Below are positions 3,111-62,849 of a stretch of DNA of 64,000 nucleotides, in pieces; positions within the stretch are counted from its first letter, which is position 1, and each line of letters starts with the position of its first letter. The notes under the pieces are model-generated. The model was not told the origin of the DNA. It was given only the letters and a program-made list of their open reading frames with translations, and did no database searches. Source of the DNA: Candidatus Woesearchaeota archaeon (GTDB lineage: Archaea; Nanobdellota; Nanobdellia; SCGC-AAA011-G17; JACPIM01). Location of the stretch: the NCBI GenBank assembly GCA_043817645.1, contig JBDRGP010000034.1:15020-79019 (forward strand). Direction: 5' to 3'. Position numbers and translations under genes: made by a program.

Positions 3111-3530
3111 CTAAAGTAGCTTTCTTATAACATCAATATACTCCTCAATCAAAACAATCAGTTTTTGTATATCTTTTTCATCTGATTCAACTTCTTCAAA
3201 ACCATAAAAAATCTCATGCCTTTCAAGCCTTAGCATATTCAGTTCGTTTAAAAATTTTGGTTCTATCTTATCAGAATATTTCTCTCGGATGTATACATAC
3301 AGGGCATAATGACTTTTTTCTTTAAATCCATCTCTAAACAACAAAGCCCTAGAAGAATGAAACATTGATGAATACAAATTAACACTAGCCATATCCAAAA
3401 CCTTTAAATTTATCAGTTTCTTGGCCTTTTCTAATTTTATTTCAGATATCTTTATAGACTTTCTTGCTTTTTCCAAACTAGGACTATCTTTCTTTAATAA
3501 CCCTCCCTCTATACATTCCTTAATATCCAT
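3111..3530 (-). CDS. HEPN-domain protein (partner of adjacent MNT nucleotidyltransferase)
   Basis: 139 aa all-helical small protein with an R..H-type motif (NMLRLERHEIFYG). It lies 1 nt downstream of an MNT gene, the usual HEPN/MNT pairing. Confidence 0.45.
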   Translation of the reverse strand: MDIKECIEGGLLKKDSPSLEKARKSIKISEIKLEKAKKLINLKVLDMASVNLYSSMFHSSRALLFRDGFKEKSHYALYVYIREKYSDKIEPKFLNELNMLRLERHEIFYGFEEVESDEKDIQKLIVLIEEYIDVIRKLL

Positions 3531-3531
3531 C

Positions 3532-4077
3532 TCACATCACAATAGGTTTTTCCCCATAAAGAGAAATACAATTTAAGATGACATCATAATAAAAAGCCTT
3601 ATCCTTCTCAGCTTTTTCTTTCCATTCCTTATAGCTATAATTAATTACTGTTAATTCTCTTTTAAGTTTTTTTTCACTTCTTATATCAAGTATCCTAATT
3701 TTATTTTTTGAAATTATGAGCATGTCTATATCGCTATTTTTATCATCATTCCCCCTTGCAACAGATCCATAGAGTATAATACTCAGAATACTTGAATTCT
3801 TTGATACAACTTCTTCCACAAATCCGCTAGAATTTATTTCAGATAATGAATAAAGGATTTTCATAATTCTCGTAAGAAAACCATCCTTAACTTTAAAAAG
3901 ATGACTTCGCCCAACATTTCTTTTTTTCAAAATACCTTGGGATAGCAAAAAATCTAAGGCTCCCTTCGCAGTGCTTGGCCCAACATTTGCCTTTCTAGCT
4001 ACATCTCTTATGCTATACTCCTCATTTTCTCTAATTATTGTTTTAACAACCTTCATCAAAGCATATTTGTTTATCAT
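3532..4077 (-). CDS. HTH + minimal nucleotidyltransferase (MNT) domain protein
   Basis: 181 aa with an N-terminal HTH-like region and the NTase signature ILYGSVARGNDDKNSDIDMLII (GS...D.D). Confidence 0.6.
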   Translation of the reverse strand: MINKYALMKVVKTIIRENEEYSIRDVARKANVGPSTAKGALDFLLSQGILKKRNVGRSHLFKVKDGFLTRIMKILYSLSEINSSGFVEEVVSKNSSILSIILYGSVARGNDDKNSDIDMLIISKNKIRILDIRSEKKLKRELTVINYSYKEWKEKAEKDKAFYYDVILNCISLYGEKPIVM

Positions 4078-4161: not shown

Positions 4162-4890
4162 TTATCCGCCAAATAATTCACCAGTTTTTCTAATTTTAAA
4201 CTTGATTACAGGCTCAACATAACCCAAATCCTTAGTAACCCCTTCAAAATCAAGAAAATCACCTTCTTCTCTACAACTCACTTTAAAACCCTCAAACAAA
4301 TCCTCATTCAAAAGACATTTTTTATCCTTTCCCCATTCAGAATATCTTTTATAAAGTCCATCAAAAACCTTCAGATCGAGATCTATCTCATAAGTATAAT
4401 TTAAGGTCTTATTATAAAAAATTCTTGGCACCAAACCCTCCTTCAGACTATCTACATTAGTAATTTGCTCTGGATAATAAACATTAATCAAAAGAGTATC
4501 ATCTTTTTCAATTATACCCACTTCATGTTTTCCTCTCAATTTAGGCCTCTTTTCAACTTCAAACACAAAATCTTTAGACATCTCCTTTTTAAGATTCTCA
4601 ATTAATCTATCATAAGGATTAAAATCCCACACACCATTCTCGGTTTCTAAAACTCCACCCTTGTTTAAAAACCCATCAAATCTTTTCAAAGTTTCAAACT
4701 TAATTCTCTGCTCAAAATAAAACACAGATTCCTCCATAAGTATATCTTCAAAAATCAAATCTTGACTTAACTTACCAACAGCTCTTGCTTTCGCATCAGT
4801 TACGACCTCATCTTTAACAACTAATGCAAATAAAACTATTCCTAATAACGCCAAAGCTAACATAGGCACAATAATTCCTCTCTTGTTCAT
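4162..4890 (-). CDS. pilin-like protein with class III (type IV prepilin-like) signal peptide
   Basis: N-terminus MNKRG|IIVPMLALALLGIVLFALVV: basic residues, then Gly, then about 20 hydrophobic residues. Last gene of the pilus operon; overlaps the upstream gene by 4 nt. Confidence 0.45.
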   Translation of the reverse strand: MNKRGIIVPMLALALLGIVLFALVVKDEVVTDAKARAVGKLSQDLIFEDILMEESVFYFEQRIKFETLKRFDGFLNKGGVLETENGVWDFNPYDRLIENLKKEMSKDFVFEVEKRPKLRGKHEVGIIEKDDTLLINVYYPEQITNVDSLKEGLVPRIFYNKTLNYTYEIDLDLKVFDGLYKRYSEWGKDKKCLLNEDLFEGFKVSCREEGDFLDFEGVTKDLGYVEPVIKFKIRKTGELFGG

Positions 4891-5399
4891 TCTGGTCTTC
4901 CCTCCAAAATCTTTAAAGTCACCGTTATGTCCTTTGCATTAGGTGAAGGAATAATCATCGCGCCCATATTTTTTCCTAAATTCTTTGGATCCAAAACATC
5001 AAATGCCTTAAAAGTTCCTTCTTCATATACTCCAACCCAGCCTGGTTTTGTAAACTCAATAGAAGGACTTCTCTCTTTCCTGTAGTAAAAAGAATAATAA
5101 AAATCAGAATCTTCAAAAAGACTATGAATTTCATTTTCTAACCTCTCAAAACTTTCCGGATCATCAAAACTCAAACTTACCAAATCACCAATATTAAGAT
5201 TCTTATCAACAGGTGTTTTTAATAAAGAAAGCAGCATATAGTCCAAAGAAACCTCACTCTCACTCTGAAGCACGCCCTTACCACCACTCTTAAACGCATC
5301 CATATTTAGCGCAACAAGAACAAGAACTATAATCACAACAATCAGAATAATAGAGGCGATAGCCATCAATCCAAATCCTAAAAACCCCTTTTTACCCAT
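4887..5399 (-). CDS. pilin-like protein with class III signal peptide
   Basis: N-terminus MGKKG|FLGFGLMAIASIILIVVIIVLVLVAL. Overlaps neighbours on both sides. Confidence 0.45.
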   Translation of the reverse strand: MGKKGFLGFGLMAIASIILIVVIIVLVLVALNMDAFKSGGKGVLQSESEVSLDYMLLSLLKTPVDKNLNIGDLVSLSFDDPESFERLENEIHSLFEDSDFYYSFYYRKERSPSIEFTKPGWVGVYEEGTFKAFDVLDPKNLGKNMGAMIIPSPNAKDITVTLKILEGRPE

Positions 5400-5805
5400 T
5401 CTTAATTAACACCTCAATCTTAACTAAGTTTCTTTCTAAAAAATAATGCCCCCCGCTACAAGCATAATTAAAATCACAAAAATCTCTATTAAAAGCGAAT
5501 TCTTCATTCTCAAAAAGCATTTTTTCACCAGAACTTATCTTAATACCGAATTTGTCCAAATCGAAACAATTCTTAAAGTTTATGACAGAAAAATCATAAA
5601 AAGAATTTTTTTCTAAACATTTTTGAGCATTAACAATAGCATACTCTAATTTAGCATCTTCAGTATTAATCTCAAAAACCATAATCTTGCTTATTACAAG
5701 CAGTATAATCAAAGAAAAAATCACTAAAAAAATAATTCTATAAATCCAAGTAATCTGCTCCTTAGCATGCGTAAACAACCCACCCTTCTTATTCATTTTT
5801 CTCAA
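5392..5805 (-). CDS. pilin-like protein with class III-like signal peptide
   Basis: N-terminus MRKMNKKGG|LFTHAKEQITWIYRIIFLVIFSLIILLVISKI, with several Cys in the mature part. The hydrophobic segment is less canonical than in the neighbours. Confidence 0.35.
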   Translation of the reverse strand: MRKMNKKGGLFTHAKEQITWIYRIIFLVIFSLIILLVISKIMVFEINTEDAKLEYAIVNAQKCLEKNSFYDFSVINFKNCFDLDKFGIKISSGEKMLFENEEFAFNRDFCDFNYACSGGHYFLERNLVKIEVLIKNG

Positions 5806-6127
5806 TTCTCAAATCCTTACCTCTTCTAAAAACCTTAAGATCAGAATCAAAAGAATTTATCTCTTTAACAACACCTTTTCTTGATATAAAAACAACATCT
5901 CCAGCCTTTTTTACATCATATTCATCATCAATAGCATAAACAACAGTAATATTTCCTTCCAGATTATTTAAAGCACTAAACAAAAAATAAAGATCCTCTT
6001 GCACAACCTTATTTTCTAACGCACTTCCATCTCTAAAAGAATCAATCCAAGCATAAGTTCCATAAATAATAACAGCAGCAATCAACAAATACATAACCCA
6101 ATACCCTAGAACATCAGTATCTGCCAT
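5789..6127 (-). CDS. pilus-operon membrane protein (single N-terminal TM, no KRG motif)
   Basis: MADTDVLGYWVMYLLIAAVIIYGTYAW... hydrophobic N-terminus. Sits inside the operon with gene overlaps. Confidence 0.3.
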   Translation of the reverse strand: MADTDVLGYWVMYLLIAAVIIYGTYAWIDSFRDGSALENKVVQEDLYFLFSALNNLEGNITVVYAIDDEYDVKKAGDVVFISRKGVVKEINSFDSDLKVFRRGKDLRIEKNE

Positions 6128-6130
6128 ATC

Positions 6131-6952
6131 TTAACCCTCTCCAAAACAAGGAAGCTCCGCACAAATACCAAGATCATTACCTTTTTTTTCAAGGTATACA
6201 AAACCAGCAGCAACCTGTTCTCTAGGACCTATATCCCATGGCCAAAAACCCTGTTCTTTTTTAGGAACAAATATACCTTTATAATTCATAATCGGGGTAT
6301 CCTCCTCAATATCAAAATAATCCCCATAAGCTCCAACTAAAAAGAACCCTTCTTGAAAACTCATTAAAAAAGAATAACGAATATCTTGTTCATACCAAAG
6401 CTGGCTTTTTTCAAGAGTAAATCCGTGCTTATCTTCATTTATAAATTTATTAACATATAAGGGCTTACAAGAAAGAACCTTCTCGCAACCAAATTCAAAA
6501 ACAGTATTAACTTCATCTCCAGCATCTATATCTGGTCTAGAATAAGATATCAAACTGAGTCTTGAACACATACAAGCACACGACCTATCTTCAGAACATC
6601 CAGCACCAATCGGTTTATGTGCATAAATATAAGCATCATGTTCTTTGGATCCATCAGCAAACCCCACAATCTTATCATATCCTTTATCAAAAAACAAGAA
6701 AGTTACACCCTCTTCTAAAAAAATATCAGATTGATCAAATGTCCTCTCCCTATCTCTAAGCAACCCATCAATAACCCCTAAAAATCTATCTAACTGAGTA
6801 ACATACTTATCTTCATCGATTTTATCCTCAGTCTCCAAAAGCCCGAGCAGATCAAAAGTCTTATCAAACAAAACAAGAACCACCAAAGCACTAATCACTA
6901 TTACTCCTACAATCATAATCATAGACCCAGAAGTACCTCTTTTTCCAATCAT
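6131..6952 (-). CDS. pilin-like protein with class III signal peptide, Cys-rich mature domain
   Basis: MIGKRG|TSGSMIMIVGVIVISALVVLVLF; mature region contains GAGCSEDRSCACMCSRL and further Cys. Confidence 0.45.
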   Translation of the reverse strand: MIGKRGTSGSMIMIVGVIVISALVVLVLFDKTFDLLGLLETEDKIDEDKYVTQLDRFLGVIDGLLRDRERTFDQSDIFLEEGVTFLFFDKGYDKIVGFADGSKEHDAYIYAHKPIGAGCSEDRSCACMCSRLSLISYSRPDIDAGDEVNTVFEFGCEKVLSCKPLYVNKFINEDKHGFTLEKSQLWYEQDIRYSFLMSFQEGFFLVGAYGDYFDIEEDTPIMNYKGIFVPKKEQGFWPWDIGPREQVAAGFVYLEKKGNDLGICAELPCFGEG

Positions 6953-7008: not shown

Positions 7009-7413
7009 TTAAGCGTTTTTCTTCCACGTCTCCTGTCCTTCCACTGCATTAGTACAAGCTCCATAAGAACAACCAACACTTATAGGAGTGTCCTTACAAT
7101 AATAATCATTAGGCACGCCATCCATCTCCTCAGCGTTTCCATCTCCATCAATATCCAATCTAAACGGAGTATCACAATATGCAGTTCTCTGACCTGTTGG
7201 AACACCAGCCGCAGCCTCACACCTCTGTTCACATATTTCTCTAGCCAAACTTAAATCAGTTCCAGCAGTTGCACCAAAAAATACACTCCTAATGCTCTTA
7301 CTTAAGTTACTTGTACCACCTAAAAAGAAAAATGCAACAACAAGCAAAACAATTACAACCAGAACAATTATAATTAAAGTATTTATAGGCATTCCTTGAC
7401 CTTTTTTATTCAT
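7009..7413 (-). CDS. pilin-like protein with class III signal peptide, Cys-rich
   Basis: MNKKGQG|MPINTLIIIVLVVIVLLVVAFFFLGG, followed by 8 Cys (CEQRCEAAAG..YCDTP..YYCKD..GCSYGAC). Confidence 0.5.
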   Translation of the reverse strand: MNKKGQGMPINTLIIIVLVVIVLLVVAFFFLGGTSNLSKSIRSVFFGATAGTDLSLAREICEQRCEAAAGVPTGQRTAYCDTPFRLDIDGDGNAEEMDGVPNDYYCKDTPISVGCSYGACTNAVEGQETWKKNA

Positions 7414-7467: not shown

Positions 7468-9090
7468 TTACTGTGTTTGCACCATAGCATTTACTATAGC
7501 CATAGAATCTGGTTTATACAGTCCCCGGGTTACTGCCAAACTAAAAACAACTTCAGTAGAGGTAGGATCTCCTTCGCCCTGCACAGCCTCTGCATGTATT
7601 TTATAAAAAACAATGTTGGCAGGAAAACTATCAAGAGAACCACAAAGATCGTCTTTCCTATATCTGAGTTTCGCATCTTCTTCACTAGAAAAACCACCGT
7701 GCACACTCAAGATATAATCACCATCAGGAGCACCACAAATAACATTCCCAGCGAAATCCCGAATCCTATAATTCAATTGGAATCCCTCCTCTAACTCAAG
7801 ATAGTCCAAATTATTCCATTCTTCAGGGTTCTCCTTAATATACCCTCCAGAATCACTACCAGTTATACCATTCGCAACCGGACTTTTGGTGTCATCAGTT
7901 TTAATTTCTAAAAGATATCGAATTTCCCCTGGATATAGCTCTACATCACCAGTATAAGTCCACTTATAGTCATCACCTAACAGTTTAGTCGAATCAAAAC
8001 GCCCTACAAATTCATACTCAAAAATCATCTTAGAAAACTTAATTCTCCTAGAATATCCAGGATCTCGAGTATACACTTCTTTCAATTTAGCAGCAGCAAC
8101 ACCACCAACATCCAATCCCAAAACCAAAACATCTTCATACAAATTTAAAGCCTCGTTCTCCCTTCCTAATTTTTGCAAACTCTCTGCTGCACCCAAGTAA
8201 TATTCGGCCTTATCTTCTTCATCTTGCAATAAGTTTAATATTTGTTTATACTTTATCAAAAGTTGATCATACTGACCAGTTCTTTTAAATTCTACAATTT
8301 CACACTTAACACCATCAAAAATACTAAACTTAGTTCTAGCCAAGTTCTCGCATTCAGGCCATAAAATATGATATCTCCTAAGTTCTAACTCAAAATTATC
8401 CTTATCAATCTTCTGTCCCACCGCTAAAAGTCTAGAATCAATGTCTATAGAGGGCGCCTTTTTTTCTTGAGCCTCTTGATAAAATTTCTGTGCATCCCCA
8501 TATCTCTTCTCATCCATAGCTTTATCTCCAGCTTCAATCAATCTCCTCCATTCCCCCTCCAAAGCCACCTCTGCATGTTTTTCTCTTTCTTCTTTTGCTT
8601 TCATCAAATATCCGTATACATCTCTCCTCGTTTTTTCATCACACTTTTCTCTTAATCCATTATACTCTTCTTCCTTTAGCTTAGTTTTTCCAGAACGATA
8701 TTTTGTATTATAATCACTTAAACTCAAACCGGGTTTTAAGACCCCTTCTTCAACACCACCACAAATATCTAAATAATGCTCAAACTCCTTCTGAGCTAAA
8801 TCATATTTACTTTCACCCATAAGATCGTTTCCTCTACTAATCAAGCTATTAAGATACCCACCAGGATCACTCCTGATAAACTCCAAATCCTCCTCTTCTT
8901 TCGGAGTAAATAAACCAAAAAAATTCTTAAACTTTTCAACTCCAGATTTGCTTTCTTCAGTCACAGTTTTAATAGTTCCTCCTTCAGCTTCATTAGCGCC
9001 ACGATAAAGGAATACAACAACAATAATTACAGCTACAACTCCAACTAATAAACTAAAAAGATTATTCCAATGAAATTCTCCTCTTTTCAT
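7468..9090 (-). CDS. large pilin-like/pilus-associated protein (class III-like N-terminus, helical-repeat middle, beta-rich C-terminus)
   Basis: MKRG|EFHWNNLFSLLVGVVAVIIVVVFLY; 540 aa with a TPR-like helical region (YGDAQKFYQEAQEK, AEYYLGAAESLQKLGRENEALNLYEDVL). Confidence 0.4.
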   Translation of the reverse strand: MKRGEFHWNNLFSLLVGVVAVIIVVVFLYRGANEAEGGTIKTVTEESKSGVEKFKNFFGLFTPKEEEDLEFIRSDPGGYLNSLISRGNDLMGESKYDLAQKEFEHYLDICGGVEEGVLKPGLSLSDYNTKYRSGKTKLKEEEYNGLREKCDEKTRRDVYGYLMKAKEEREKHAEVALEGEWRRLIEAGDKAMDEKRYGDAQKFYQEAQEKKAPSIDIDSRLLAVGQKIDKDNFELELRRYHILWPECENLARTKFSIFDGVKCEIVEFKRTGQYDQLLIKYKQILNLLQDEEDKAEYYLGAAESLQKLGRENEALNLYEDVLVLGLDVGGVAAAKLKEVYTRDPGYSRRIKFSKMIFEYEFVGRFDSTKLLGDDYKWTYTGDVELYPGEIRYLLEIKTDDTKSPVANGITGSDSGGYIKENPEEWNNLDYLELEEGFQLNYRIRDFAGNVICGAPDGDYILSVHGGFSSEEDAKLRYRKDDLCGSLDSFPANIVFYKIHAEAVQGEGDPTSTEVVFSLAVTRGLYKPDSMAIVNAMVQTQ

Positions 9091-9093
9091 ATC

Positions 9094-9261
9094 TTAACCA
9101 AATCCTAAGAAATTTATAAAAGTATCTATCAAATCAAACACTATCTCCATAACAGATGAAAAACCCATTAAAGCCATGGCCCCCACTAAAACAACTACAA
9201 CTACAACTAATATGAGAGTTAACACCTTAGTTATAGCTATTTCGCCTTTATTCCCTATCAT
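9094..9261 (-). CDS. unannotated mini-pilin (55 aa) with class III signal peptide
   Basis: Hand translation: MIGNKG|EIAITKVLTLILVVVVVVLVGAMALMGFSSVMEIVFDLIDTFINFLGFG. Not in the ORF track (under 60 aa). Stop is 3 nt from the next start. Confidence 0.4.
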   Translation of the reverse strand: MIGNKGEIAITKVLTLILVVVVVVLVGAMALMGFSSVMEIVFDLIDTFINFLGFG

Positions 9262-9401
9262 CTTAAAGTAAATTTATCTAAAAACCCCACACCTTTTTGA
9301 GTTAAAGCCATTATTATCAAAACCACAATTATCACTATCACTAAAAATATCAAAAGCTCTCCAATTATTTTTAATTCTAAACCTTTTTTATTCAAAGTCA
9401 T
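9258..9401 (-). CDS. unannotated mini-pilin (47 aa) with class III signal peptide
   Basis: Hand translation: MTLNKKG|LELKIIGELLIFLVIVIIVVLIIMALTQKGVGFLDKFTLR. Its stop TGA overlaps the ATG of the 55-aa ORF (ATGA). Confidence 0.4.
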   Translation of the reverse strand: MTLNKKGLELKIIGELLIFLVIVIIVVLIIMALTQKGVGFLDKFTLR

Positions 9402-10263
9402 CACACCTCTGTAAAATTTCTATAGCTCTCTCTGAGCCAGAAGCAATAAGCAAAGCAGGATAAAACTCAGTAGCGCGTGCACCAAGAGCATAAACATCCC
9501 ATCCTACCAAAGCAATCCCAACAGGCCCAAGCAATTTTGTACTAGCTTTCGTCCCAAGCGCAGTGGCCACTTTTCTAGCAGCCACCCCATAACCAACTCT
9601 GCCAGCAGCGCCCCCTGCAGCAGCCGCAGGCGCCTCTAGCTGGCCAACATCACCACCAAGTAACTCTTTCCAAAACTCACTTTTCTTATTAGCCACAAAG
9701 AGCACATAAAAATTATTTTGAGTATCAATCCTAATGTTTCCATCGCCCAAATCCAACCTACTTTTTTCAACCTTAGTAAAAAATTCTGAGTAAGTTACCT
9801 TGCCAGTGGGTATCTTTTCATTATCTAAAAAATCTTGTAAATCATCCAGCGGAATCTCGCCTTCAAAACCATTACTACTATACCTCCGAATAGAACAAAT
9901 ACGACAATAAAGATCAGAACCAAACCAATCAATATCACTTAAAAAATCTATCTCCCCTTCGCCAAACTGCCACCAACAAGCGTACATATCTCTAGCAATC
10001 TCCTCCAAAACCTGTCTCTTAACTAAAGTTTCACTAGTCTCTCTTTTTGTCTCACACTTCAACTTAAATGGAGACTCCTTACCAATATAAGGTAATTTAG
10101 TACTATAATGAAGCTCAACACTTGTTCTACAAGTAGCTGGATCATATTTACCAGTACCAAAAGATTCATACCATTTAATAGCTAACAAAACAAGTGCAAC
10201 TAAAGCAACTACAGCAAGAAGCACTCCAGCAAACTCCTTCCAAGCCAGTCCTCTTTTATCCAT
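9388..10263 (-). CDS. pilin-like protein with class III-like signal peptide
   Basis: MDKRG|LAWKEFAGVLLAVVALVALVLLAI; mature part has several Cys and an Ala/Gly-rich C-terminal stretch. Confidence 0.4.
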   Translation of the reverse strand: MDKRGLAWKEFAGVLLAVVALVALVLLAIKWYESFGTGKYDPATCRTSVELHYSTKLPYIGKESPFKLKCETKRETSETLVKRQVLEEIARDMYACWWQFGEGEIDFLSDIDWFGSDLYCRICSIRRYSSNGFEGEIPLDDLQDFLDNEKIPTGKVTYSEFFTKVEKSRLDLGDGNIRIDTQNNFYVLFVANKKSEFWKELLGGDVGQLEAPAAAAGGAAGRVGYGVAARKVATALGTKASTKLLGPVGIALVGWDVYALGARATEFYPALLIASGSERAIEILQRCDDFE

Positions 10264-10375
10264 TCAGAGCACCTTTAAAATAGATATTATACACTAAAAA
10301 AAGAATCAAACAAATTGTAATAACAAATATTATAAAACTAACCAAACTAACACCTTGCAAACCCTTTTTCATCAT
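10256..10375 (-). CDS. unannotated mini-pilin (39 aa) with class III signal peptide
   Basis: Hand translation: MMKKG|LQGVSLVSFIIFVITICLILFLVYNIYFKGALNG. Its ATG overlaps the stop of the upstream 62-aa ORF (ATGA), and its own stop overlaps the ATG of the 291-aa pilin. Confidence 0.35.
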   Translation of the reverse strand: MMKKGLQGVSLVSFIIFVITICLILFLVYNIYFKGALNG

Positions 10376-10560
10376 CTTAATCTTGCTTTTTCCCTGCTCC
10401 TCAAATTAACAACCAAAATTATAATTCCAATAACAATTACGATCCCATTATAAACAGAACCAGAACTAATTTTACTCAAACCTTCAAAACTATCTTCAAA
10501 AAAAGGAAACAAACCAACCGCTATAACCACTAGTCCCAAAAAAACATTTAACCATTTCAT
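10372..10560 (-). CDS. small two-TM membrane protein, pilus operon
   Basis: 62 aa with two hydrophobic helices; overlaps genes on both sides. Confidence 0.3.
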   Translation of the reverse strand: MKWLNVFLGLVVIAVGLFPFFEDSFEGLSKISSGSVYNGIVIVIGIIILVVNLRSREKARLR

Positions 10561-11207
10561 TCTGTCCCCCTAATCCACTTCCATCCAAACACAACAACAA
10601 AGATAGCAGCAACCAAGGCCAGAATATTCAAAACCGACATTACAAAAAACGGACTTAAAGGCAGATAATAAAACAACCCACTCAATTGATATCCGCCTTC
10701 ACTCTGCATCCAAAACCAAAACAACAAATAAGCCAATCCAACAACAGTTCTTGTAGCATTACTTCCCTTCAAGGCTGCAAACAAGCCGATTATTATCAAC
10801 AAAATGAATATCAAACCAAGAAATCCGCCAAACAAACCTCCAAAAATATCTCCTAAACCGCAAACTAAAGAAAACCCGCTTGTAGCTTCCCACCTAACAA
10901 TACCTATAGCCAAAGCAAAAGCAATAACCACTGCCAGAATATCACTTTTACTTCTAGCAGGACCCTTAAAAGCCCAATGACCAAAAACAAAAAACACTAC
11001 AAATAAAACAAAGAATTCAAACCATTCAGCATAATTATCACATAAATTTGAAATAAATCCAAACCCAAATCCCTCGCCAGAACCAAATCCTCCACCATAA
11101 TCATATCCATAATCAAAATAATGGGTTTGTCCAAAAACAATAGGTAACAAACTAAGCAAGCTAAAAATCACTAAAAGAATCACCATCTTTTTGCTTAACA
11201 TATTCAT
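10557..11207 (-). CDS. polytopic membrane protein with Gly/aromatic-rich N-terminal segment, pilus operon
   Basis: 216 aa. Signal-like N-terminus, then YFDYGYDYGGGFGSGEGFGFGF, then at least 5 TM helices; contains a GLGDIFGG segment. Confidence 0.35.
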   Translation of the reverse strand: MNMLSKKMVILLVIFSLLSLLPIVFGQTHYFDYGYDYGGGFGSGEGFGFGFISNLCDNYAEWFEFFVLFVVFFVFGHWAFKGPARSKSDILAVVIAFALAIGIVRWEATSGFSLVCGLGDIFGGLFGGFLGLIFILLIIIGLFAALKGSNATRTVVGLAYLLFWFWMQSEGGYQLSGLFYYLPLSPFFVMSVLNILALVAAIFVVVFGWKWIRGTE

Positions 11208-11236: not shown

Positions 11237-13477
11237 CTACACTCCAGTACCCCTGGCAACCTGCACAACCCCTCCAGCTAAAACACTGAATATAACTATA
11301 CTAATCAAAGCAATCAAAAAATACAATCCAACAGCTATAAACAAATTCCTACCTATAACATACCTATGAGTTACTCTATCAATCCCATTTTCTATACCAC
11401 TACTTAAAATACTCAAAATGATAACAACCTCAACAACAAACAGCCCAACAACAATTTGAAATTGATAACCGGGGATAATATCAGTAATAGTCAAAATTTT
11501 AGTGATATTCTCAAAACCGCCAAATCCTGCCGCTGCAGCACCTTCTTGATCTCCCATCTCGCTCAAAATCAAAGTCAAATTGTTAATAATAGAAATCATC
11601 ATACTAGTCACACCAACTACGATACCAGCAATCATCGGAGTCAAAAAAGTAATTTGCCCTTTCATACTACTCAAAATATCAGCCAACAAATCTTTCAATC
11701 TCTCTGTAATACTCCTAACTCTATTAACATAATCAGAAATTGTTATCAAACTTTTAGCAACTATTTGAGGTCCTTTCTTAGCACTCTCAACTAAAACCTT
11801 CATACTACTTTTTATCAGATTGCTAGGAAAATAAACTATGGACCCTCTGTGTGAATCAAAAATAGCATCCTTAACACTCATCCCCATTTTTCTAATATTT
11901 GCATCAGTCATTCTTAAGAAATCGCCACTTGGAGTTCCCTGAACATTTTCAGCCACACTACTAATCGCTCTCTCAACAGGCAACCCATCACCTACCCTAT
12001 TACCTAACTGAAAAATAGCACCAGAAAACTCTCTTTCCATATCAGAAGTTCTTTTACGAATCCTAATCAACTGTTTACTCCAAATATAATAATAAGTCCC
12101 AATACCCAAAGCAATCCCTAAAGGAATAAACAAACTCAAGATCATACTAAAAACACTATAAGGGCCAATACAAGTTTCATCACACTTATAATCTAACAAC
12201 TTGCTCTCAAGAATACTTCCTTCAAACAAAGTATAATCAAAACCTTGAGGAGTAGCATAAAACAGAAGCAAGGGTATCAATCCAATTATAACTAATATTC
12301 CCCCAATAAAAAGAGCAAACATCCCAGGACTAAATCCCATCCCGCCAACCTTCATTTTAGTAAACTCTTCAAACTCAGGATGCTCTTTCAGAATATCTTC
12401 ACTTCCGTACCCAGTAGGTCTTTTCTCGAGTAAATTCATTCCATAAAAATAAACAAAAACAGGCAAAAATAAATTATACAAAAGAGCTAAATGCCACCAC
12501 TTAACCAAACCTTCTAAAAATCCGCTCATCAAAGGAAAAACAACCAGCCCCAAAACAGGCAAGATCACACCCAACATATAAACCATAGTAATAGGGCTTC
12601 TCAAATCATGAGCATAATGCAACATCTTTTCATAAGTCCCATTCAAGATAACTTCCAAAGCCTTCTCTAATTGGCCTATTCTTCTTTCGTCACTAGGCTC
12701 ATACAAACTCCCTTCAATCAAATGCATACTTTCAACAAACTCTAAACTATGGTCCTTCCACCCAACTAAATAAGAATCTAAACTTTCTTTAATACTCATA
12801 AACTTACCATTCTCCACATCCCAAAGAATTTTCCTCAAATCCAAAGCTAAAGGAGCGCCAACATGCTCTCCAGCAAATTTAATAGCATGCTCCAAATTGC
12901 TTGTATGTCTCATATACATAACCATATACAAAATACAAAGCACCATTTGGTTACTTGCCCTTAAACGCCATCTCGCAGCAATCCTCAAAGGATACTTAGA
13001 TAAAAGCCCCATCAACAAAGCACCAAACAACACAATAATCAACGGAATAAAGACTACACCCAAGCTAACACTTTTCAATCCGCCTTCAGGACTAAAAAAC
13101 CCAACAGCGTCTCCACTAAAAAGATACATCCCAACCCCAGAAAATACCCCAAGCAAAACAATCAAAAACACCAAAATAGCAGCAAAACTAGTTGCTCCTT
13201 CAACAGTCATATCCAAATGTGCAATATCAATTGCTCCCTGTATCTTTTCTCTATCTTTCTCTTTTGGTTTAACTCTTAAAGTCCTCTCAGCAAATCTGCA
13301 TAACTTCTCATATCTGGAAACATATCTCTCTAAATTTTCTCTTCTAAAAATCTCATACTCCTGAGAAAAAGAATCTCCTGGAAAGTGCTCCATCTCATCA
13401 AGTTCTATACTTCTACCCAACCTTTTCTCAGCCTTTCCCAAGATTTCCTTAATTTCCTCACCAGTAATTCTTCTCAT
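11237..13477 (-). CDS. TadC/PilC/FlaJ-family membrane platform protein of type IV pilus/archaellum-like systems
   Basis: 746 aa polytopic membrane protein immediately downstream of the secretion ATPase. Two large cytoplasmic helical domains are each followed by TM clusters, as in T2SS-F proteins. Confidence 0.6.
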   Translation of the reverse strand: MRRITGEEIKEILGKAEKRLGRSIELDEMEHFPGDSFSQEYEIFRRENLERYVSRYEKLCRFAERTLRVKPKEKDREKIQGAIDIAHLDMTVEGATSFAAILVFLIVLLGVFSGVGMYLFSGDAVGFFSPEGGLKSVSLGVVFIPLIIVLFGALLMGLLSKYPLRIAARWRLRASNQMVLCILYMVMYMRHTSNLEHAIKFAGEHVGAPLALDLRKILWDVENGKFMSIKESLDSYLVGWKDHSLEFVESMHLIEGSLYEPSDERRIGQLEKALEVILNGTYEKMLHYAHDLRSPITMVYMLGVILPVLGLVVFPLMSGFLEGLVKWWHLALLYNLFLPVFVYFYGMNLLEKRPTGYGSEDILKEHPEFEEFTKMKVGGMGFSPGMFALFIGGILVIIGLIPLLLFYATPQGFDYTLFEGSILESKLLDYKCDETCIGPYSVFSMILSLFIPLGIALGIGTYYYIWSKQLIRIRKRTSDMEREFSGAIFQLGNRVGDGLPVERAISSVAENVQGTPSGDFLRMTDANIRKMGMSVKDAIFDSHRGSIVYFPSNLIKSSMKVLVESAKKGPQIVAKSLITISDYVNRVRSITERLKDLLADILSSMKGQITFLTPMIAGIVVGVTSMMISIINNLTLILSEMGDQEGAAAAGFGGFENITKILTITDIIPGYQFQIVVGLFVVEVVIILSILSSGIENGIDRVTHRYVIGRNLFIAVGLYFLIALISIVIFSVLAGGVVQVARGTGV

Positions 13478-13653
13478 CTTTTTTTCCTATCCCTTTTTCT
13501 TTTTCCGCCAACGCTTTTTCCAAAAGGGTTGTTTAAATAGTATTCAATCAAGTATAGAACCAAATCACTCTCAGATTGTCTTTTAACAAAATCCAATTCT
13601 AAGAGTTTTTTCTTAACCTCTTTTTTAATTCGTATAGAAGTATCTTCAGACAT
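13474..13653 (-). CDS. unannotated 59-aa ribbon-helix-helix-like protein, translationally coupled to platform gene
   Basis: Hand translation: MSEDTSIRIKKEVKKKLLELDFVKRQSESDLVLYLIEYYLNNPFGKSVGGKRKRDRKKR. Beta-strand plus two helices resembles RHH (CopG/Arc). Its stop TGA overlaps the platform ATG (ATGA). Confidence 0.4.
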   Translation of the reverse strand: MSEDTSIRIKKEVKKKLLELDFVKRQSESDLVLYLIEYYLNNPFGKSVGGKRKRDRKKR

Positions 13654-13728: not shown

Positions 13729-15999
13729 TCAACCCAATCTCTTCTTCTTAATTTCTCTTTTAACCCAAGTATCCCACTCAAAAAAGATTCTTTTATGATC
13801 CAAGTGACCAATCTCTTCTTTTAATTCATCAGAAACCCTATGAAACTCATCATTCGCAGAGATCACAAAAGGAGCCTCAAGTAGATCCAACATCTTAGCT
13901 TTATTCGCATAATCAACAATAGCCTTTTTCATCTTAGCTCTTACTTGTATATTCTCCCAAATAGCATCCCAATCGCCCACAAATTCTCTAACATTCCCAG
14001 CAATTCTTTTCAAAGTTTCACTATCACCATTAATCAATTCATCAGTTGGCACTAATAGATCCTTCTTAGCATCATACTTCATCAAATCAACAAAACCATG
14101 TTCTCTTAAAGGATCATCTTCCCAATGTTTCCTTACCTCCGTAATACTCCTCACTCTTCTAAGGCTATGTAAACCATCAGCACTCTTAACAGGATTTGTA
14201 ATAACAATTATATCGGTAGCCTTAAAACTAGTCCTTGGAACTCCCAAATCATTCACAACCCTATCAAAAACACCATAAGGAGAATCAGCATGCAAAGTAC
14301 CAGCAACAACATTAGCCATAGCACCAATTCTCATAGCTTCATAGAGTGCTTTTGCTTCGATGCTCCTAATTTCACCCACAATCAAAGCACTATCCCCCAT
14401 TCTTAAACTTGTTCTAATACCTTCATCCGCAGCAATCTCAGTACCACCAGTAGTTAAAGCACTCCTAACTTTCATCTGTTGTATATTATAACCTAAATCT
14501 CTTAAAGCGCCCGTGGGTAATTCCAAAGTGTCCTCCAGGGTAATCACTCTATATCGTCTCATAATCTCAACTAAAAAACTCCCCAAAACTGAAGTTTTTC
14601 CAGAACTTCTAGTCCCAGCAACTAATAAAGTTCTAGCACCATCAATCAAAAAACTCATCAAACCAGCACCAAGAGGATCAATCATTTTATTATTAATAAA
14701 CAAAGGCAATGTCCAAGGTTTATCTCTATGTCTCCTTAAAGAAAAAGCCAACCCATGCGGATTCAACGGATTTGAAATAATAGCAACTCTTGCTCTAACT
14801 CCAGGAATCTCAAGCTCAGTATCCAAAATAGGATTAGCCTCGTCCAAGGGCCTTGCACTTAATAATCTAAACTTAGATGCCCATCCTTCAGAATCCTCAA
14901 TACTCGGAACAATATTAGTAACACAGTCACCATAATCGGCATGAACAATAAAAATAGGATTTTTACCAACAGGACTGTTTACAGAAATGTCTTGCACTTT
15001 AGGATCCTGTAACAGAATCTCAACCATCCCAAATCCAATAGTATACCTAACAAGTATTTTCGCTAATTTTCTAATCCTTCCAATATCAAGATCATAACCC
15101 TTATGCTCGGCCAGTTCCATCAACAAATCTCTCCCAATATTCAAAAAAGTCCTTCTCATTCTATCCGGCTCTAAAAACTCTTCTTCCTTAGGTCTATGCT
15201 CAGCTAAAACAGTTCTTGCTAAATCAATTAGTTCATACTCATCCTCTGTAACTTTTAATTCTGGAGGAACAACATGATACATTAACTTAATATCATCCTT
15301 TAATTTCAGTAGAGTCACCGTATTATCAAAAACAGCATAACTGTCAACAAATTCTGCATCCAAAGGAATAGTGCTCATCAACTGAGTATACATAAAATCA
15401 GGGCTAACTACTGGCCTAAAAACTTCAACATAGAGCCCCCTATCTCCAATTCTATGTCCTGCAAGTCTATTCTTCACTCTCTTAATCAAACTCGTATTCT
15501 CTAAATTATTTTTAATATACTGCAAAACATCAATATACCTTCTCTCATCTTCTGCTTGAGCAGGATCACCAATATCCTCAACCCTAATGTTCCCTTCTCG
15601 GATTAATCTTTTTAATTCAACATAAGCACCAACCGGATCACTTCTTAACAAATTATAAATAACATATTGGATAGTTGCATACTTATTAGATACATCAGTA
15701 CCATAACCCAGCTGACTCAAACTAAGTAATCTTTTCTGCTTAGTTAAATTACTAAAAACAGTAGCAACCTCAACCAACAAGGCAGTTTGATCTCTAGAAT
15801 AATTAAAGTTTCTTTTCTGGTTCAAAATAATCCTGGCAACAGAAGGCATTTCAGCCAAATAACCAATAACCCTAACCATCACTAAAGGATTTCCTTCAAT
15901 ACTGGGAGAATACGGCCATGTATTTGCATCAATCTTAAGAACCTCTTCTCCACCCTCTAATACAATCCCATATCCACTCCCTTTTTTAGAAACTGCCAT
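13729..15999 (-). CDS. type II/IV secretion family ATPase (PilB/FlaI/VirB11-like) for type IV pilus assembly
   Basis: 756 aa; Walker A GTRSSGKTSVLGSFLVE, then VITLEDTLELP and the C-terminal region typical of GspE/FlaI hexameric ATPases. Confidence 0.8.
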   Translation of the reverse strand: MAVSKKGSGYGIVLEGGEEVLKIDANTWPYSPSIEGNPLVMVRVIGYLAEMPSVARIILNQKRNFNYSRDQTALLVEVATVFSNLTKQKRLLSLSQLGYGTDVSNKYATIQYVIYNLLRSDPVGAYVELKRLIREGNIRVEDIGDPAQAEDERRYIDVLQYIKNNLENTSLIKRVKNRLAGHRIGDRGLYVEVFRPVVSPDFMYTQLMSTIPLDAEFVDSYAVFDNTVTLLKLKDDIKLMYHVVPPELKVTEDEYELIDLARTVLAEHRPKEEEFLEPDRMRRTFLNIGRDLLMELAEHKGYDLDIGRIRKLAKILVRYTIGFGMVEILLQDPKVQDISVNSPVGKNPIFIVHADYGDCVTNIVPSIEDSEGWASKFRLLSARPLDEANPILDTELEIPGVRARVAIISNPLNPHGLAFSLRRHRDKPWTLPLFINNKMIDPLGAGLMSFLIDGARTLLVAGTRSSGKTSVLGSFLVEIMRRYRVITLEDTLELPTGALRDLGYNIQQMKVRSALTTGGTEIAADEGIRTSLRMGDSALIVGEIRSIEAKALYEAMRIGAMANVVAGTLHADSPYGVFDRVVNDLGVPRTSFKATDIIVITNPVKSADGLHSLRRVRSITEVRKHWEDDPLREHGFVDLMKYDAKKDLLVPTDELINGDSETLKRIAGNVREFVGDWDAIWENIQVRAKMKKAIVDYANKAKMLDLLEAPFVISANDEFHRVSDELKEEIGHLDHKRIFFEWDTWVKREIKKKRLG

Positions 16000-17008: not shown

Positions 17009-17557
17009 CTACTTCTTCGTACCCACAGCTTTCACTAAAAAATAACTCACAACAAAAATGAATATAATGCCCAGAACCTTAGGATTAAAAATTACTCTTC
17101 TAGCCTCTGCACCAATACCTGTCTGGCTAGCAGAAGGAAAACCCACAAAACTAGGAAATATTTTTCCAACACCAATCAAAAAAATAATAACAACAATAAC
17201 TATAACAATTACAGTAATAGCAGGCGTACCTTTAATATAGCTCGTAATATCTTCCTGCTTCATTCCAAGAAGCATAACCCCTATAAAAATAATAGCCATA
17301 ATAATAAAAAACAAAACAAAAAAAGGAACAATTAACGTCAATAAATTCCTTAAATCAGCAACCAAGACAAAAAGCAGAGCCAATATAAAAGCTATCAATG
17401 CGTGTATACCCCTATCCTCTCCAAGTATACTATACCTGTTAAAAAGCGCATAAATTATCAAAAAAACAAAGAAAAATACAAATAAGGGGATTAAATAAGT
17501 AAGCACCCCAAAATCTAATAACGTTGCCATTTTATTTCTTAAAGATTGCGTCTCCAA
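17009..17557 (-). CDS. membrane protein, member of tandem paralog triplet
   Basis: 182 aa, 4-5 TM helices. N-terminal segment LDFGVLTYLIPLFVFFFVFLIIYALFNRYSILGEDRG resembles the two upstream paralogs. Confidence 0.4.
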   Translation of the reverse strand: METQSLRNKMATLLDFGVLTYLIPLFVFFFVFLIIYALFNRYSILGEDRGIHALIAFILALLFVLVADLRNLLTLIVPFFVLFFIIMAIIFIGVMLLGMKQEDITSYIKGTPAITVIVIVIVVIIFLIGVGKIFPSFVGFPSASQTGIGAEARRVIFNPKVLGIIFIFVVSYFLVKAVGTKK

Positions 17558-18068
17558 AATTCTTAAATGTTTCCCCAGCAGGTTTATCTTTTCCTTCCCT
17601 TGTCACAAAGAAAACAATAATAATCAGTACAGCCAAAAACGTCAAAACTCCTTTGGTCTCAGAACTCAATCCAGCAAAGATGTTAGGAATACCATACCTT
17701 GACCAGTAGCTCTCTCCAAAAATCCATAACACCACAATAACAGCCAAAACAGCAGCAAGTCCTTTCATCCCAGAAGACCATCCGTAATCTTCTCCAACAA
17801 AAACACCAACAACTAAAAGTATCATCAACAATACCACAATCAACAAAGCAACATTAGGTAAAAATCTATTGATCGTGCTAACCACAACGCCATTTCTTAT
17901 CAATAAAAAGCCAAAAACAAGCGCAATGATCGCATCAATATTCTTCTTACCTCCAAGTATTTTTGTAGATTGCATGATAGCAAACACAATAGTAAAGATT
18001 AATACAAACGGCAAAACTATATCAAACAGAGAATCATTTCCCAATAAAAAATTTAAATCAACAGCCAT
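17532..18068 (-). CDS. membrane protein, member of tandem paralog triplet
   Basis: 178 aa: FDIVLPFVLIFTIVFAIMQSTKILG, paralogous to 18068-18622 (FFDIVLPFILVFTLVFAILEKTRILGEE). Confidence 0.45.
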   Translation of the reverse strand: MAVDLNFLLGNDSLFDIVLPFVLIFTIVFAIMQSTKILGGKKNIDAIIALVFGFLLIRNGVVVSTINRFLPNVALLIVVLLMILLVVGVFVGEDYGWSSGMKGLAAVLAVIVVLWIFGESYWSRYGIPNIFAGLSSETKGVLTFLAVLIIIVFFVTREGKDKPAGETFKNFGDAIFKK

Positions 18069-61980: not shown

Positions 61981-62849
61981 TCAAATTTTAAGACATCTAT
62001 ACTCCCCACCAATATCAAATTCTCTATGCATGTTTCTTATAGCCCCAATAGTGGCATCCGCAAGTTCTCTTGAAGAAAGCCCTCTAACATCTAAAGGCTC
62101 TCCAAAATTAACATACCCCTTTAACACGCCAAGCCTAGAACGAGAAGAAGAATACCAAACAAAATCAGTTCCCAAGTATATTCCTCTCCCCAACAAGTAT
62201 TTCAACTTAGCACTCACCCTATGTAAATGTCCTGTTGGCCCATCAGCATTTGCAGAAGCCATAATCTTCTTGCCTAGTTTCAACAAACCATAAGATCTGT
62301 CTTCAATCCTTTTAGAATACCTAACATGAACAGGAATAACCTGACACTCTTTTTCCATAACTTCCTGCGCCCTCGTTACAGAAGCAAAAAACATGCTCTT
62401 AAATTCACCTAAATCAGAAAATCCGGGAGTATACGTCCTACCGGGTTGCGCAAAAAAGAAAAAGTCTCTTCTTTTTATAATTTCAACAATTTTTTTAATT
62501 AAACCGACCCTATTCTTAGAATTTCTATCAAAAGAGACAGCACCAAACCTCTTAAAGAACTTTCTCAAAGGCCAAAACATCATATTCTCTCCTGCCAAAG
62601 TAACAGGCAAACTATCAACCCCATTCAAAAACCAGTAAAGACTAAGACCAATAGCAAATTCATCCGTATGACTAAAATGACTTGGCACATAAATCCTTCT
62701 CGTTTCCCCCCTGTGTTTATTTGACTCTCTCCAGATACTAAAACCTCATCCACCAAATTTCCCACCGCCCTCCTAACCACAGACCCCCGACTACACACAC
62801 GGTTACAATAGTCCTCAGCAAAATCAAACGCCACATCTTCCAAATTCAT
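61981..62849 (-). pseudogene. PlsC-like acyltransferase (H..xxD and FxxPGRT blocks) split by a frameshift in a C6 run (62706-62711); may be a sequencing error
   Basis: Downstream frame: ...IYVPSHFSHTDEFAIG...FFAQPGRTYTPG (compare NHQSxxD and FPEGTR). The upstream 74-aa ORF (62625-62849) reads ...LVSGESQINTGG in another frame. Adding one G (7 G on the coding strand) joins them into an ORF of about 300 aa. Without the fix the downstream part can only start at GTG. Confidence 0.4.

Follow-up and report, generated by a model that had tools for sequence, protein, structure and literature searches.

Three small overlapping genes in a filament operon of a DPANN archaeon probably encode headless, one-helix pilin-like proteins

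Introduction

Tad pilins are 40–60 amino acids (aa) long and made up of nothing but the alpha-1 helix, whose polar C-terminal end lies on the filament surface; the mature PilA of Caulobacter has 45 aa (PMC10710030). In Methanococcus, the substrates of EppA have leaders of 5–13 aa that end in Gly and a conserved Glu at +5, and the major pilin of this archaeon is 62 aa long when mature (PMC3875500). The Epd subunits are very small, the minor ones 54–63 aa, and have no globular domain (PMC3875500; PMC4858521; bioRxiv 10.64898/2026.04.22.720090). A survey ties the Epd pilin to Tad through this missing globular domain (bioRxiv 10.64898/2026.04.22.720090). Geobacter sulfurreducens encodes PilA-N and PilA-C, a short gene for a helix-only pilin (65 aa) with the gene for a larger partner immediately after it (PMC10710030). 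Here we describe three small open reading frames (ORFs), p39, p47 and p55, named for their lengths in aa. They lie in a type IV pilus-like operon on a stretch of DNA of 64 kb (34% G+C), hereafter the window, from a metagenome-assembled genome (MAG) of Candidatus Woesearchaeota (DPANN).

Pili are the presumed means by which DPANN archaea attach to their hosts (PMC9938205). A 2016 census of archaeal type IV pili was unable to identify cognate pilins for one ATPase clade that is also present in nanoarchaea (PMC4858521). The three window genes are real, conserved and under purifying selection, they are linked to an ATPase operon, and their N-terminal motif is conserved. We consider it probable that they are genuine genes of a type IV filament operon and code for headless, one-helix pilin-like pre-proteins of the class-III-signal type. 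Of the three, p47 (family B) has the best claim to be a pilin, p55 (family X) a weaker one and p39 (family A) the weakest.

Results

Three small genes chained by overlaps

The three small ORFs are present on the minus strand where a first-pass annotation, made from the sequence alone, had placed them (Table 1), and they are chained to each other and to their neighbors as it described. The TGA stop codon of an upstream 62-aa gene shares an ATGA with the start of p39, and the TGA of p47 shares one with the ATG of p55. At its other end, p39 shares 8 nucleotides (nt), ATGGATAA, with the start of the 291-aa gene (p291), the ATG included. The start of p47 in turn falls inside the last codons at the 3' end of p291, and the 540-aa gene (p540) starts 3 nt past the end of p55.

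The start of p39 consists of two consecutive ATGs. That of p47 is ambiguous, with a GTG at 9404, an ATG at 9401 and a TTG at 9395 as possible initiation codons. A GAGGTG motif is found 2 nt before the ATG and 8 nt before the TTG; a 45-aa NCBI call for p47 (MNKKG...) starts at the TTG. Such start signals are weak evidence either way, as a Shine-Dalgarno-like motif accompanies only 13 of the 46 large ORFs in the window (28%, versus a background of 11%).

All three encoded proteins begin with a short basic leader, 5–7 residues in length and ending in Gly, so that the position before the putative cleavage site (-1) is Gly, in keeping with the Gly or Ala of class III signals. The tails that follow the hydrophobic core are short and amphipathic, 10–18 residues, and contain no globular domain. 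The first pass had described a canonical K/R-K-G motif followed by a 20-residue helix. Leader and core are indeed there, but p55 reads N-K-G, and "canonical" is too strong: polar spacers of 2, 8 and 6 residues stand in front of the cores of p39, p47 and p55. A helix-only architecture is predicted: AlphaFold2 models built on the family alignments give a single continuous helix for p47 (residues 6–44, pLDDT 77) and a helix with one kink for p55 (5–32 and 34–52, pLDDT 83). With Foldseek, the single-helix model of p47 found no match in the PDB. Read directly, the sequences of the window mini-proteins contain no N-glycosylation sequon.

All three genes had been taken to be unannotated. This holds for p39, which is absent from the public protein collection in both its 39-aa and its 38-aa form, but p47, as the 45-aa start variant, and p55 are NCBI hypothetical proteins (MFH1592866.1 and MFH1592865.1). 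The gene calls of JGI, ENA and Logan likewise contain both. A look-up of 13 family A sequences, the two forms of p39 and 11 sequences from relatives, found three in the collection. Some pipelines do call family A genes of 37–41 aa in loci L067 and L069.

Statistical and evolutionary evidence for coding

To compare the window with related operons we used a scan based on the ATPase, with one genome per species. It yielded 64 loci, nearly all from MAGs of Woesearchaeota, Nanoarchaeota and other DPANN archaea. Locus L066 is a single 1.1-kb fragment from a metagenome scan with the 291-aa protein; it covers the p39 counterpart and ends short of p47 and p55. Locus L070 was recovered via a family X protein.

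Both strands of the window were scanned for ORFs of at most 75 aa with [KR][GA] near the start and then a hydrophobic stretch, 17 residues or longer and free of charges. Exactly three such small ORFs were found. They are p39, p47 and p55, clustered within 1.3 kb. The mean in 100 first-order Markov simulations of the window was 0.3, with a maximum of 2. In 1.04 Mb of related loci, the same criteria pick out 57 ORFs on the strand of the operon and 6 on the other. We also searched 10,040 six-frame ORFs of the loci with hidden Markov models (HMMs) of the four families A, B, C and X. Every small match was on the operon strand (25/25, 38/38, 35/35 and 21/21).

Between p39 and its L066 counterpart there is 67% identity over 33 codons, and the proportion of differences is 0.60 at synonymous sites (pS) and 0.19 at nonsynonymous sites (pN), with a dN/dS (w) of 0.19. 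When the two DNA sequences were aligned blind to frame, the mismatches fell 9, 4 and 15 times on codon positions 1, 2 and 3. For p47, dN/dS is 0.19–0.37 relative to L067, L069 and L070, and for p55 it is 0.46 relative to L070. Closer pairs inside families B and C give w of 0.14–0.38. Compared with L070, the neighboring genes p291, p540 and p134 have w of 0.24–0.39 and the gene for the 746-aa putative platform protein has w of 0.06. The values of the mini genes are similar to those of p291, p540 and p134; they thus evolve in the manner of the operon's other, fast-changing pilin-like genes. Pairs with 30% identity or less (26–30%) are saturated and uninformative by the Nei–Gojobori method (NG86) and were excluded from the evidence; these were p55 with L001 and L002 (w ~0.7), the family X pair L001–L002 (w=1.19) and p39 with L070 (pS 0.81). 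The first-pass annotation had asked for frames conserved in relatives and a frame-specific coding signal. Both were found: pN is smaller than pS in the informative pairs and the frames are conserved.

Four families of small genes in related operons

Downstream of the platform gene, the related loci have a recurring order of genes. A family A gene is followed by the p291 family, family B, either family X or family C, and larger pilin-like genes including the p134 family. This order was seen in L001, L002, L007, L009, L011, L015, L021, L029, L051, L052, L067, L070 and L072. Where a small ORF of this type precedes another, the two overlap in 21 of 55 cases, 14 of these 21 by the 4-nt ATGA. L070 is syntenic with the window from the ATPase through the RPA gene and has counterparts of all three mini genes: an uncalled family A ORF of 37 aa (L070:4712-4825), a family B gene of 56 aa and a family X ortholog of 43 aa, which lies between the family B gene and a 498-aa gene.

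A family A counterpart of 31–42 aa stands directly before the p291-family gene, overlapping or abutting it, in about 20 loci. For p39 itself, counterparts are found in L049 (37 aa), L070 (37 aa) and the metagenomic fragment (L066:441-545). Besides the one in L070, uncalled family A mini ORFs are present in the annotated loci L002 (~7790-7890) and L013 (~8260-8355). In each of the 15 loci that have a p291 homolog, mini ORFs of families A and B lie on either side of it.

Family B comprises at least 94 database clusters of 47–81 aa in a profile search, all hypothetical and without a Pfam domain. Among 473 window ORFs, p47 is the top match (E=7.5e-8) of a family B HMM from which the window sequence had been left out. 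The family has K-K-[GA] in 83 of 88 members, with G or A at -1 and a modal leader of five residues (MxKKG). After the leader, position +4 is W in 63/83, +5 is E or D in 69/83, and +6 is E in 32/83 or Y in 18/83. The median mature length is 46 aa, and the tail frequently ends in LRFG.

Family C, found in other loci, retains [KR][GA] in 44 of 45 members and looks like the N-terminal helix of p134 standing alone; the p134 N-terminus is the top window match of the family C HMM (E=2e-13). An assignment of p55, by its position, to this family of small paralogs of the p134 N-terminus was considered and rejected, the family C HMM built without p55 giving E=0.59. As that model fails to recognize p55, a separate family X was built, with ten representatives of 43–55 aa. 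Its HMM, when built without p55, ranks p55 first of the 473 window ORFs (E=5.3e-6). Comparison of the families with hhalign gave probabilities of 96.9% for X–B, 96.9% for X–C and 89.6% for A–B, values that the shared transmembrane (TM) composition may inflate.

Elsewhere in the window, a hydrophobic ORF of 39 aa (MKITTWIILIVVILVLLYYFAPGVFYSLKNWFCGLVGFC) at 1866-1985 on the minus strand, between an RPA-like and a Holliday-junction-resolvase-like gene, also matches the family X HMM (E=1e-4). It has no K-G site and could be either a chance ORF or the gene of a small membrane protein.

Known pilin families and prepilin peptidases

The Pfam family with the largest number of matching members is Flp1_like (PF16982), with 22/88 for family B and 18/43 for family C. 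These matches are in the hydrophobic N-terminal region and are all under the gathering threshold of 33.5 bits (best E 7e-5 for B and 5e-6 for C). In family X, one of ten members matches Flp1_like (E=0.08). Flp_Fap (PF04964) was matched by only 3/43 members of family C, at E ~0.08. PF04021 was not matched by the three window proteins or by the first member of each alignment, nor is it among the 25 families most matched by B and C. For family B, the NCBIfam models returned nothing beyond membrane-protein noise.

The residues after the leader Gly are LELKIIGE in p47, EIAITK in p55 and LQGVSL in p39. None has the EY of Flp pilins, and E or D at +5 is absent. The predicted mature lengths of p47 (40 aa) and p55 (49 aa) are within the 40–60 aa of helix-only pilins and that of p39 (34 aa) is below this range.

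The operon of one relative, L072, ends with a Peptidase_A24 gene (L072:15027-15869, plus strand; PF01478, 32.7 bits versus a threshold of 26.5), and L015:3789-4574 is a homolog of this gene. In the window, 61981-62688 gave a weak tblastn match to prepilin peptidase and was rejected, as Pfam identifies it as an acyltransferase.

The operon and its surroundings

The gene cluster spans 4.1–16.0 kb of the window on the minus strand. In the order of transcription it comprises the genes for the ATPase, a 59-aa, a 746-aa, a 216-aa and a 62-aa protein, then p39, p291, p47, p55, p540, p134, p273 and more (Table 1). At least 10 consecutive genes on this strand have a K/R-G leader followed by a hydrophobic helix and are joined by overlaps. 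No tRNA and no Rfam element was found in the 64-kb window.

Table 1. Genes of the filament operon. Positions are those of the window; a slash in a sequence follows the leader Gly.
Feature	Position	Strand	Description
p39 (family A)	10256-10375	-	39 aa, MMKKGLQGVSLVSFIIFVITICLILFLVYNIYFKGALNG; leader MMKKG, spacer LQ, core of 22 residues, tail NIYFKGALNG; predicted mature length 34 aa
p47 (family B)	9258-9401	-	47 aa, MTLNKKGLELKIIGELLIFLVIVIIVVLIIMALTQKGVGFLDKFTLR; leader MTLNKKG (MNKKG from the TTG), spacer LELKIIGE, core of 19 residues, tail QKGVGFLDKFTLR; predicted mature length 40 aa
p55 (family X)	9094-9261	-	55 aa, MIGNKGEIAITKVLTLILVVVVVVLVGAMALMGFSSVMEIVFDLIDTFINFLGFG; leader MIGNKG, spacer EIAITK, core of 26 residues, tail EIVFDLIDTFINFLGFG; predicted mature length 49 aa
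Assembly ATPase	13729..15999	-	756 aa, FlaI/TadA/CpaF type; Pfam T2SSE, 54 bits, above the cut-off
59-aa ORF	13474-13653	-	Basic; between the ATPase gene and the presumed platform gene, overlapping the start of the latter
746-aa protein	11237..13477	-	Polytopic membrane protein, 8 predicted TM segments
216-aa protein	10557..11207	-	Membrane protein, 5 TM; signal-like N-terminus, G/F/Y-rich stretch GYDYGGGFGSGEGFGFGF
62-aa protein	10372..10560	-	Two TM; TGA stop overlaps the ATG of p39
p291	9388..10263	-	291 aa, pilin-like (MDKRG/LAWKE...); homologs in 15 loci
p540	7468..9090	-	540 aa, pilin-like (MKRG/EFHW...); weak TPR matches
p134	7009..7413	-	134 aa, pilin-like, Cys-containing (MNKKG/QGMPINTL...)
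Five operon-tail genes	4162..6952	-	273, 112, 137, 170 and 242 aa; four with a K/R-G leader
HEPN/nucleotidyltransferase pair	3111-4077	-	Ends the cluster

The ATPase gene lies 3.4 kb upstream of the mini ORFs on the same strand, with the 746-aa gene between them. Its product matches the NCBIfam models for FlaI (1e-35) and TadA (1.5e-32), both under the cut-off, and the closest solved chains are Archaeoglobus fulgidus GspE2 (2oap), CpaF and FlaI. The 746-aa gene is immediately downstream of the ATPase gene in 57 of the 64 related loci, at 27–80% identity. The 59-aa ORF between them is conserved in the closest locus, L049, alone (77% over 39 aa), and could be a small DNA-binding regulator. Homologs of the 216-aa protein are encoded in L049 (79%), L002 and L001, with weaker matches in L006, L019 and L056; those of the 62-aa protein are in L049, L001, L002 and L066, and L006 has a weak match to it. 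For both proteins, no Pfam or NCBIfam family was found.

An exact look-up of the 291-aa protein gave no match. Its C-terminal region is hydrophobic and rich in Gly and Ala (…AAAAGGAAGRVGYGVAARK…GIALVGWDVYALGA…), and the homolog L067:7263-8171 has weak matches to Gly-zipper_Omp and Rick_17kDa_Anti; this suggests a second membrane-interacting element. Positional homologs of p540 are present in L001 (418 aa), L002 (377 aa) and L070 (498 aa). Among the pilin-like genes, p134 is the best conserved, with 57% identity to its counterparts in L001 and L002 and homologs in 17 loci. No Pfam family was found for the five genes of the operon tail.

Near the head of the operon is a DDE transposase of an insertion sequence element (18720-19550, plus strand). 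Just upstream of the ATPase gene, at 17009-18622 on the minus strand, three tandem paralogous genes encode 5-TM proteins of 182, 178 and 184 aa with no convincing Pfam family. They may belong to the same surface system as the operon.

Discussion

The proposal of the first-pass annotation, that real small coding genes for proteins with a pilin-like N-terminus had been overlooked here, is borne out as far as the genes are concerned: they are conserved and coding, and they are part of a type IV pilus-like operon. We infer that the pre-proteins are cleaved and incorporated into a filament, where each would be a major or a minor subunit. The pre-proteins would insert in the membrane with the N-terminus inside. 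A prepilin peptidase of the A24 type, encoded elsewhere in the genome, would then cut after the Gly to leave helices of 34, 40 and 49 residues. The FlaI/CpaF-like ATPase and the presumed 746-aa platform could pull these helices from the membrane. Joined by their hydrophobic segments, the helices would polymerize along with the operon's larger pilin-like proteins, their polar tails turned toward the solvent as in Flp/Tad and Epd pili. The size and helix-only design of the mini-proteins fit Flp-type major pilins; the well conserved p134 is an equally good candidate for the major pilin. With distinctly lower probability, and as a tentative extension, Woesearchaeota and related DPANN archaea might build an all-helix Tad-like pilus. 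Its main subunit would be the family B protein (~40–46 residues when mature), and the p39-type proteins, at 27–34 residues, would be the smallest pilin-like proteins seen so far.

Several observations weigh against a pilin function. Roughly 35 of the 64 loci obtained with the ATPase are without mini genes of this kind within 10 kb. Between the Gly and the hydrophobic core is a polar, often multiply charged spacer of 2–9 residues, which is atypical of type IV pilins. At E<=0.1, p39, p47 and p55 match none of Flp_Fap, Class_IIIsignal, Flp1_like and the NCBIfam pilin models, and p47 is without the +4 W and the +5 E of its own family. The K-G site is absent from the family A homologs in L002 (MEFESLLK...), L013 (MKDTLKYIVG...) and L066 (MQHLSLVSF...), so processing of family A proteins cannot be essential everywhere. 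The family A HMM, built from 11 short sequences, is unspecific: in the window it ranks the p134 N-terminus first and p39 third (E=0.037). The case for p39 is for this reason based on synteny and on its counterparts in L066, L049 and L070. No A24 prepilin peptidase is detectable within the 64-kb window. The 746-aa protein has no Pfam or NCBIfam match and a sequence search of the PDB gave nothing meaningful, so it is presumed to be the platform (a FlaJ/TadC analog) by its position only.

These observations are shared in part by an alternative that we regard as unlikely, though it is the most serious one. The mini-proteins would be real, small, single-pass membrane proteins that are accessory to the pilus machine and not filament subunits, whether cleaved or not. 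They could be regulators, partners of the assembly platform, or proteins that chaperone or anchor the large pilin-like proteins encoded next to them. The family A proteins of L002, L013 and L066, which keep the TM segment and the tail while lacking the K-G site, are consistent with this, as are the polar and charged spacers after the Gly and the lack of a match to any curated pilin family. Family A is always directly before the p291-family gene and overlaps it, suggesting a stoichiometric partner, and a mature peptide of 27–34 residues is under the 40–60 aa range of Tad pilins, the smallest among the documented pilins compared here (PMC10710030). The p39-type peptides in particular may be membrane accessory partners of the p291-family protein and not pilins. 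A plain anchor, however, needs no K/R followed by G/A at -1, and this is kept in nearly all members of families B and C. The acidic +5 residue of family B is shared with Epd and Flp pilins, and operon-encoded proteins with such a leader are pilins in characterized type IV systems (PMC3875500). We therefore still prefer pilin-like subunits to accessory proteins, most clearly for p47.

The genes could also encode split pilins in the style of Geobacter PilA-N/PilA-C, the mini helix serving as the alpha-1 core and the downstream p291 or p540 as the outer domain. The translational coupling of mini ORF and large gene (the 8-nt overlap of p39 with p291, the 3-nt gap between p55 and p540) and the Geobacter precedent (PMC10710030) speak for such an arrangement. 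It is nevertheless improbable: the downstream proteins bear a K/R-G leader and a hydrophobic helix of their own and can therefore do without a borrowed alpha-1, the gene after p47 is a further mini ORF and not that of a domain protein, and in other loci the mini ORFs of families B and C adjoin varied partners. Least probable of all is that the three are untranslated chance ORFs in the short intergenic and overlapping stretches of an AT-rich genome, even though they are very short and p39 is uncalled by every pipeline in the collection. The frames are open at syntenic positions in loci whose synonymous sites are near saturation, substitutions follow the order codon position 3 > 1 > 2 with pN < pS, profiles built without the window sequence match p47 and p55 specifically, and matches of the family HMMs are confined to the operon strand. 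With three such ORFs within 1.3 kb where 0.3 are expected per window, the conservation data effectively refute the chance reading, which on these sequence comparisons we regard as effectively excluded.

The pilins of DPANN archaea are poorly cataloged, and families A, B and X of the window, with the related family C, are concrete candidates for filament subunits. All four are "hypothetical" and lack a model in Pfam or NCBIfam, and most genes of family A go uncalled. The shared features amount to a rule for finding more of them: one looks downstream of the genes for the ATPase and the platform for genes chained by ATGA whose products combine a K-K-G leader with a TM helix and a short tail. Annotation pipelines would do well to include profiles of the four families and to admit genes of 30–40 codons in such operons. 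If family B does form an all-helix filament, the headless-pilin design of Flp and Epd would extend to DPANN archaea. Such a filament, an operon-encoded archaeal counterpart of the Flp pilins near the proposed archaeal root of Tad, would also be relevant to the idea that Tad pili arose in archaea. An all-helix Tad-like pilus, if made, would likely be an attachment organelle of these episymbionts.

Comparison with known systems

Our families are probably new ones that work like headless type IV pilins; they are not members of Flp_Fap, DUF361 or Flp1_like. The split pilin of Geobacter resembles the window in having a short helix-only gene followed by the gene of a larger partner. It differs in that the downstream proteins of the window have their own pilin-like leader and helix, and the window system, an archaeal one, resembles Tad and Epd and not type IVa.

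The Epd system of Methanococcus maripaludis (major pilin MMP1685/EpdE and the small EppA substrates; arCOG06620, DUF361/Class_IIIsignal PF04021) is likewise archaeal, with a short class III leader ending in Gly and multiple pilin paralogs. The window proteins are smaller (34–49 aa when mature), and their genes are inside the ATPase operon whereas those of Epd pilins stand alone. In addition, Gln at +1 is rare (8/83 in family B), PF04021 is not matched, and the mini-proteins of the window carry no N-glycosylation sequon.

The Flp/Tad (type IVc) pili, with Caulobacter crescentus PilA as the example, differ from the window system in their long leader, which is 5–7 residues in the window, and in the lack of a charged spacer before the core. 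The platform of the window is presumably a single protein of 746 aa. The archaeal host has a single membrane, so unlike in Flp/Tad systems no secretin or Rcp components are expected. The likenesses to Flp/Tad are in the subunits and in the motor. The small subunits are predicted to be helix-only, with no globular domain, and small paralogs are encoded in tandem. The acidic +5 residue of family B, often with Y at +6, recalls the G/XXXXEY of Flp pilins, although p47 itself has neither the +5 E nor the +6 Y. The ATPase of the window is CpaF/TadA-like, and CpaF is among its best matches in the PDB.

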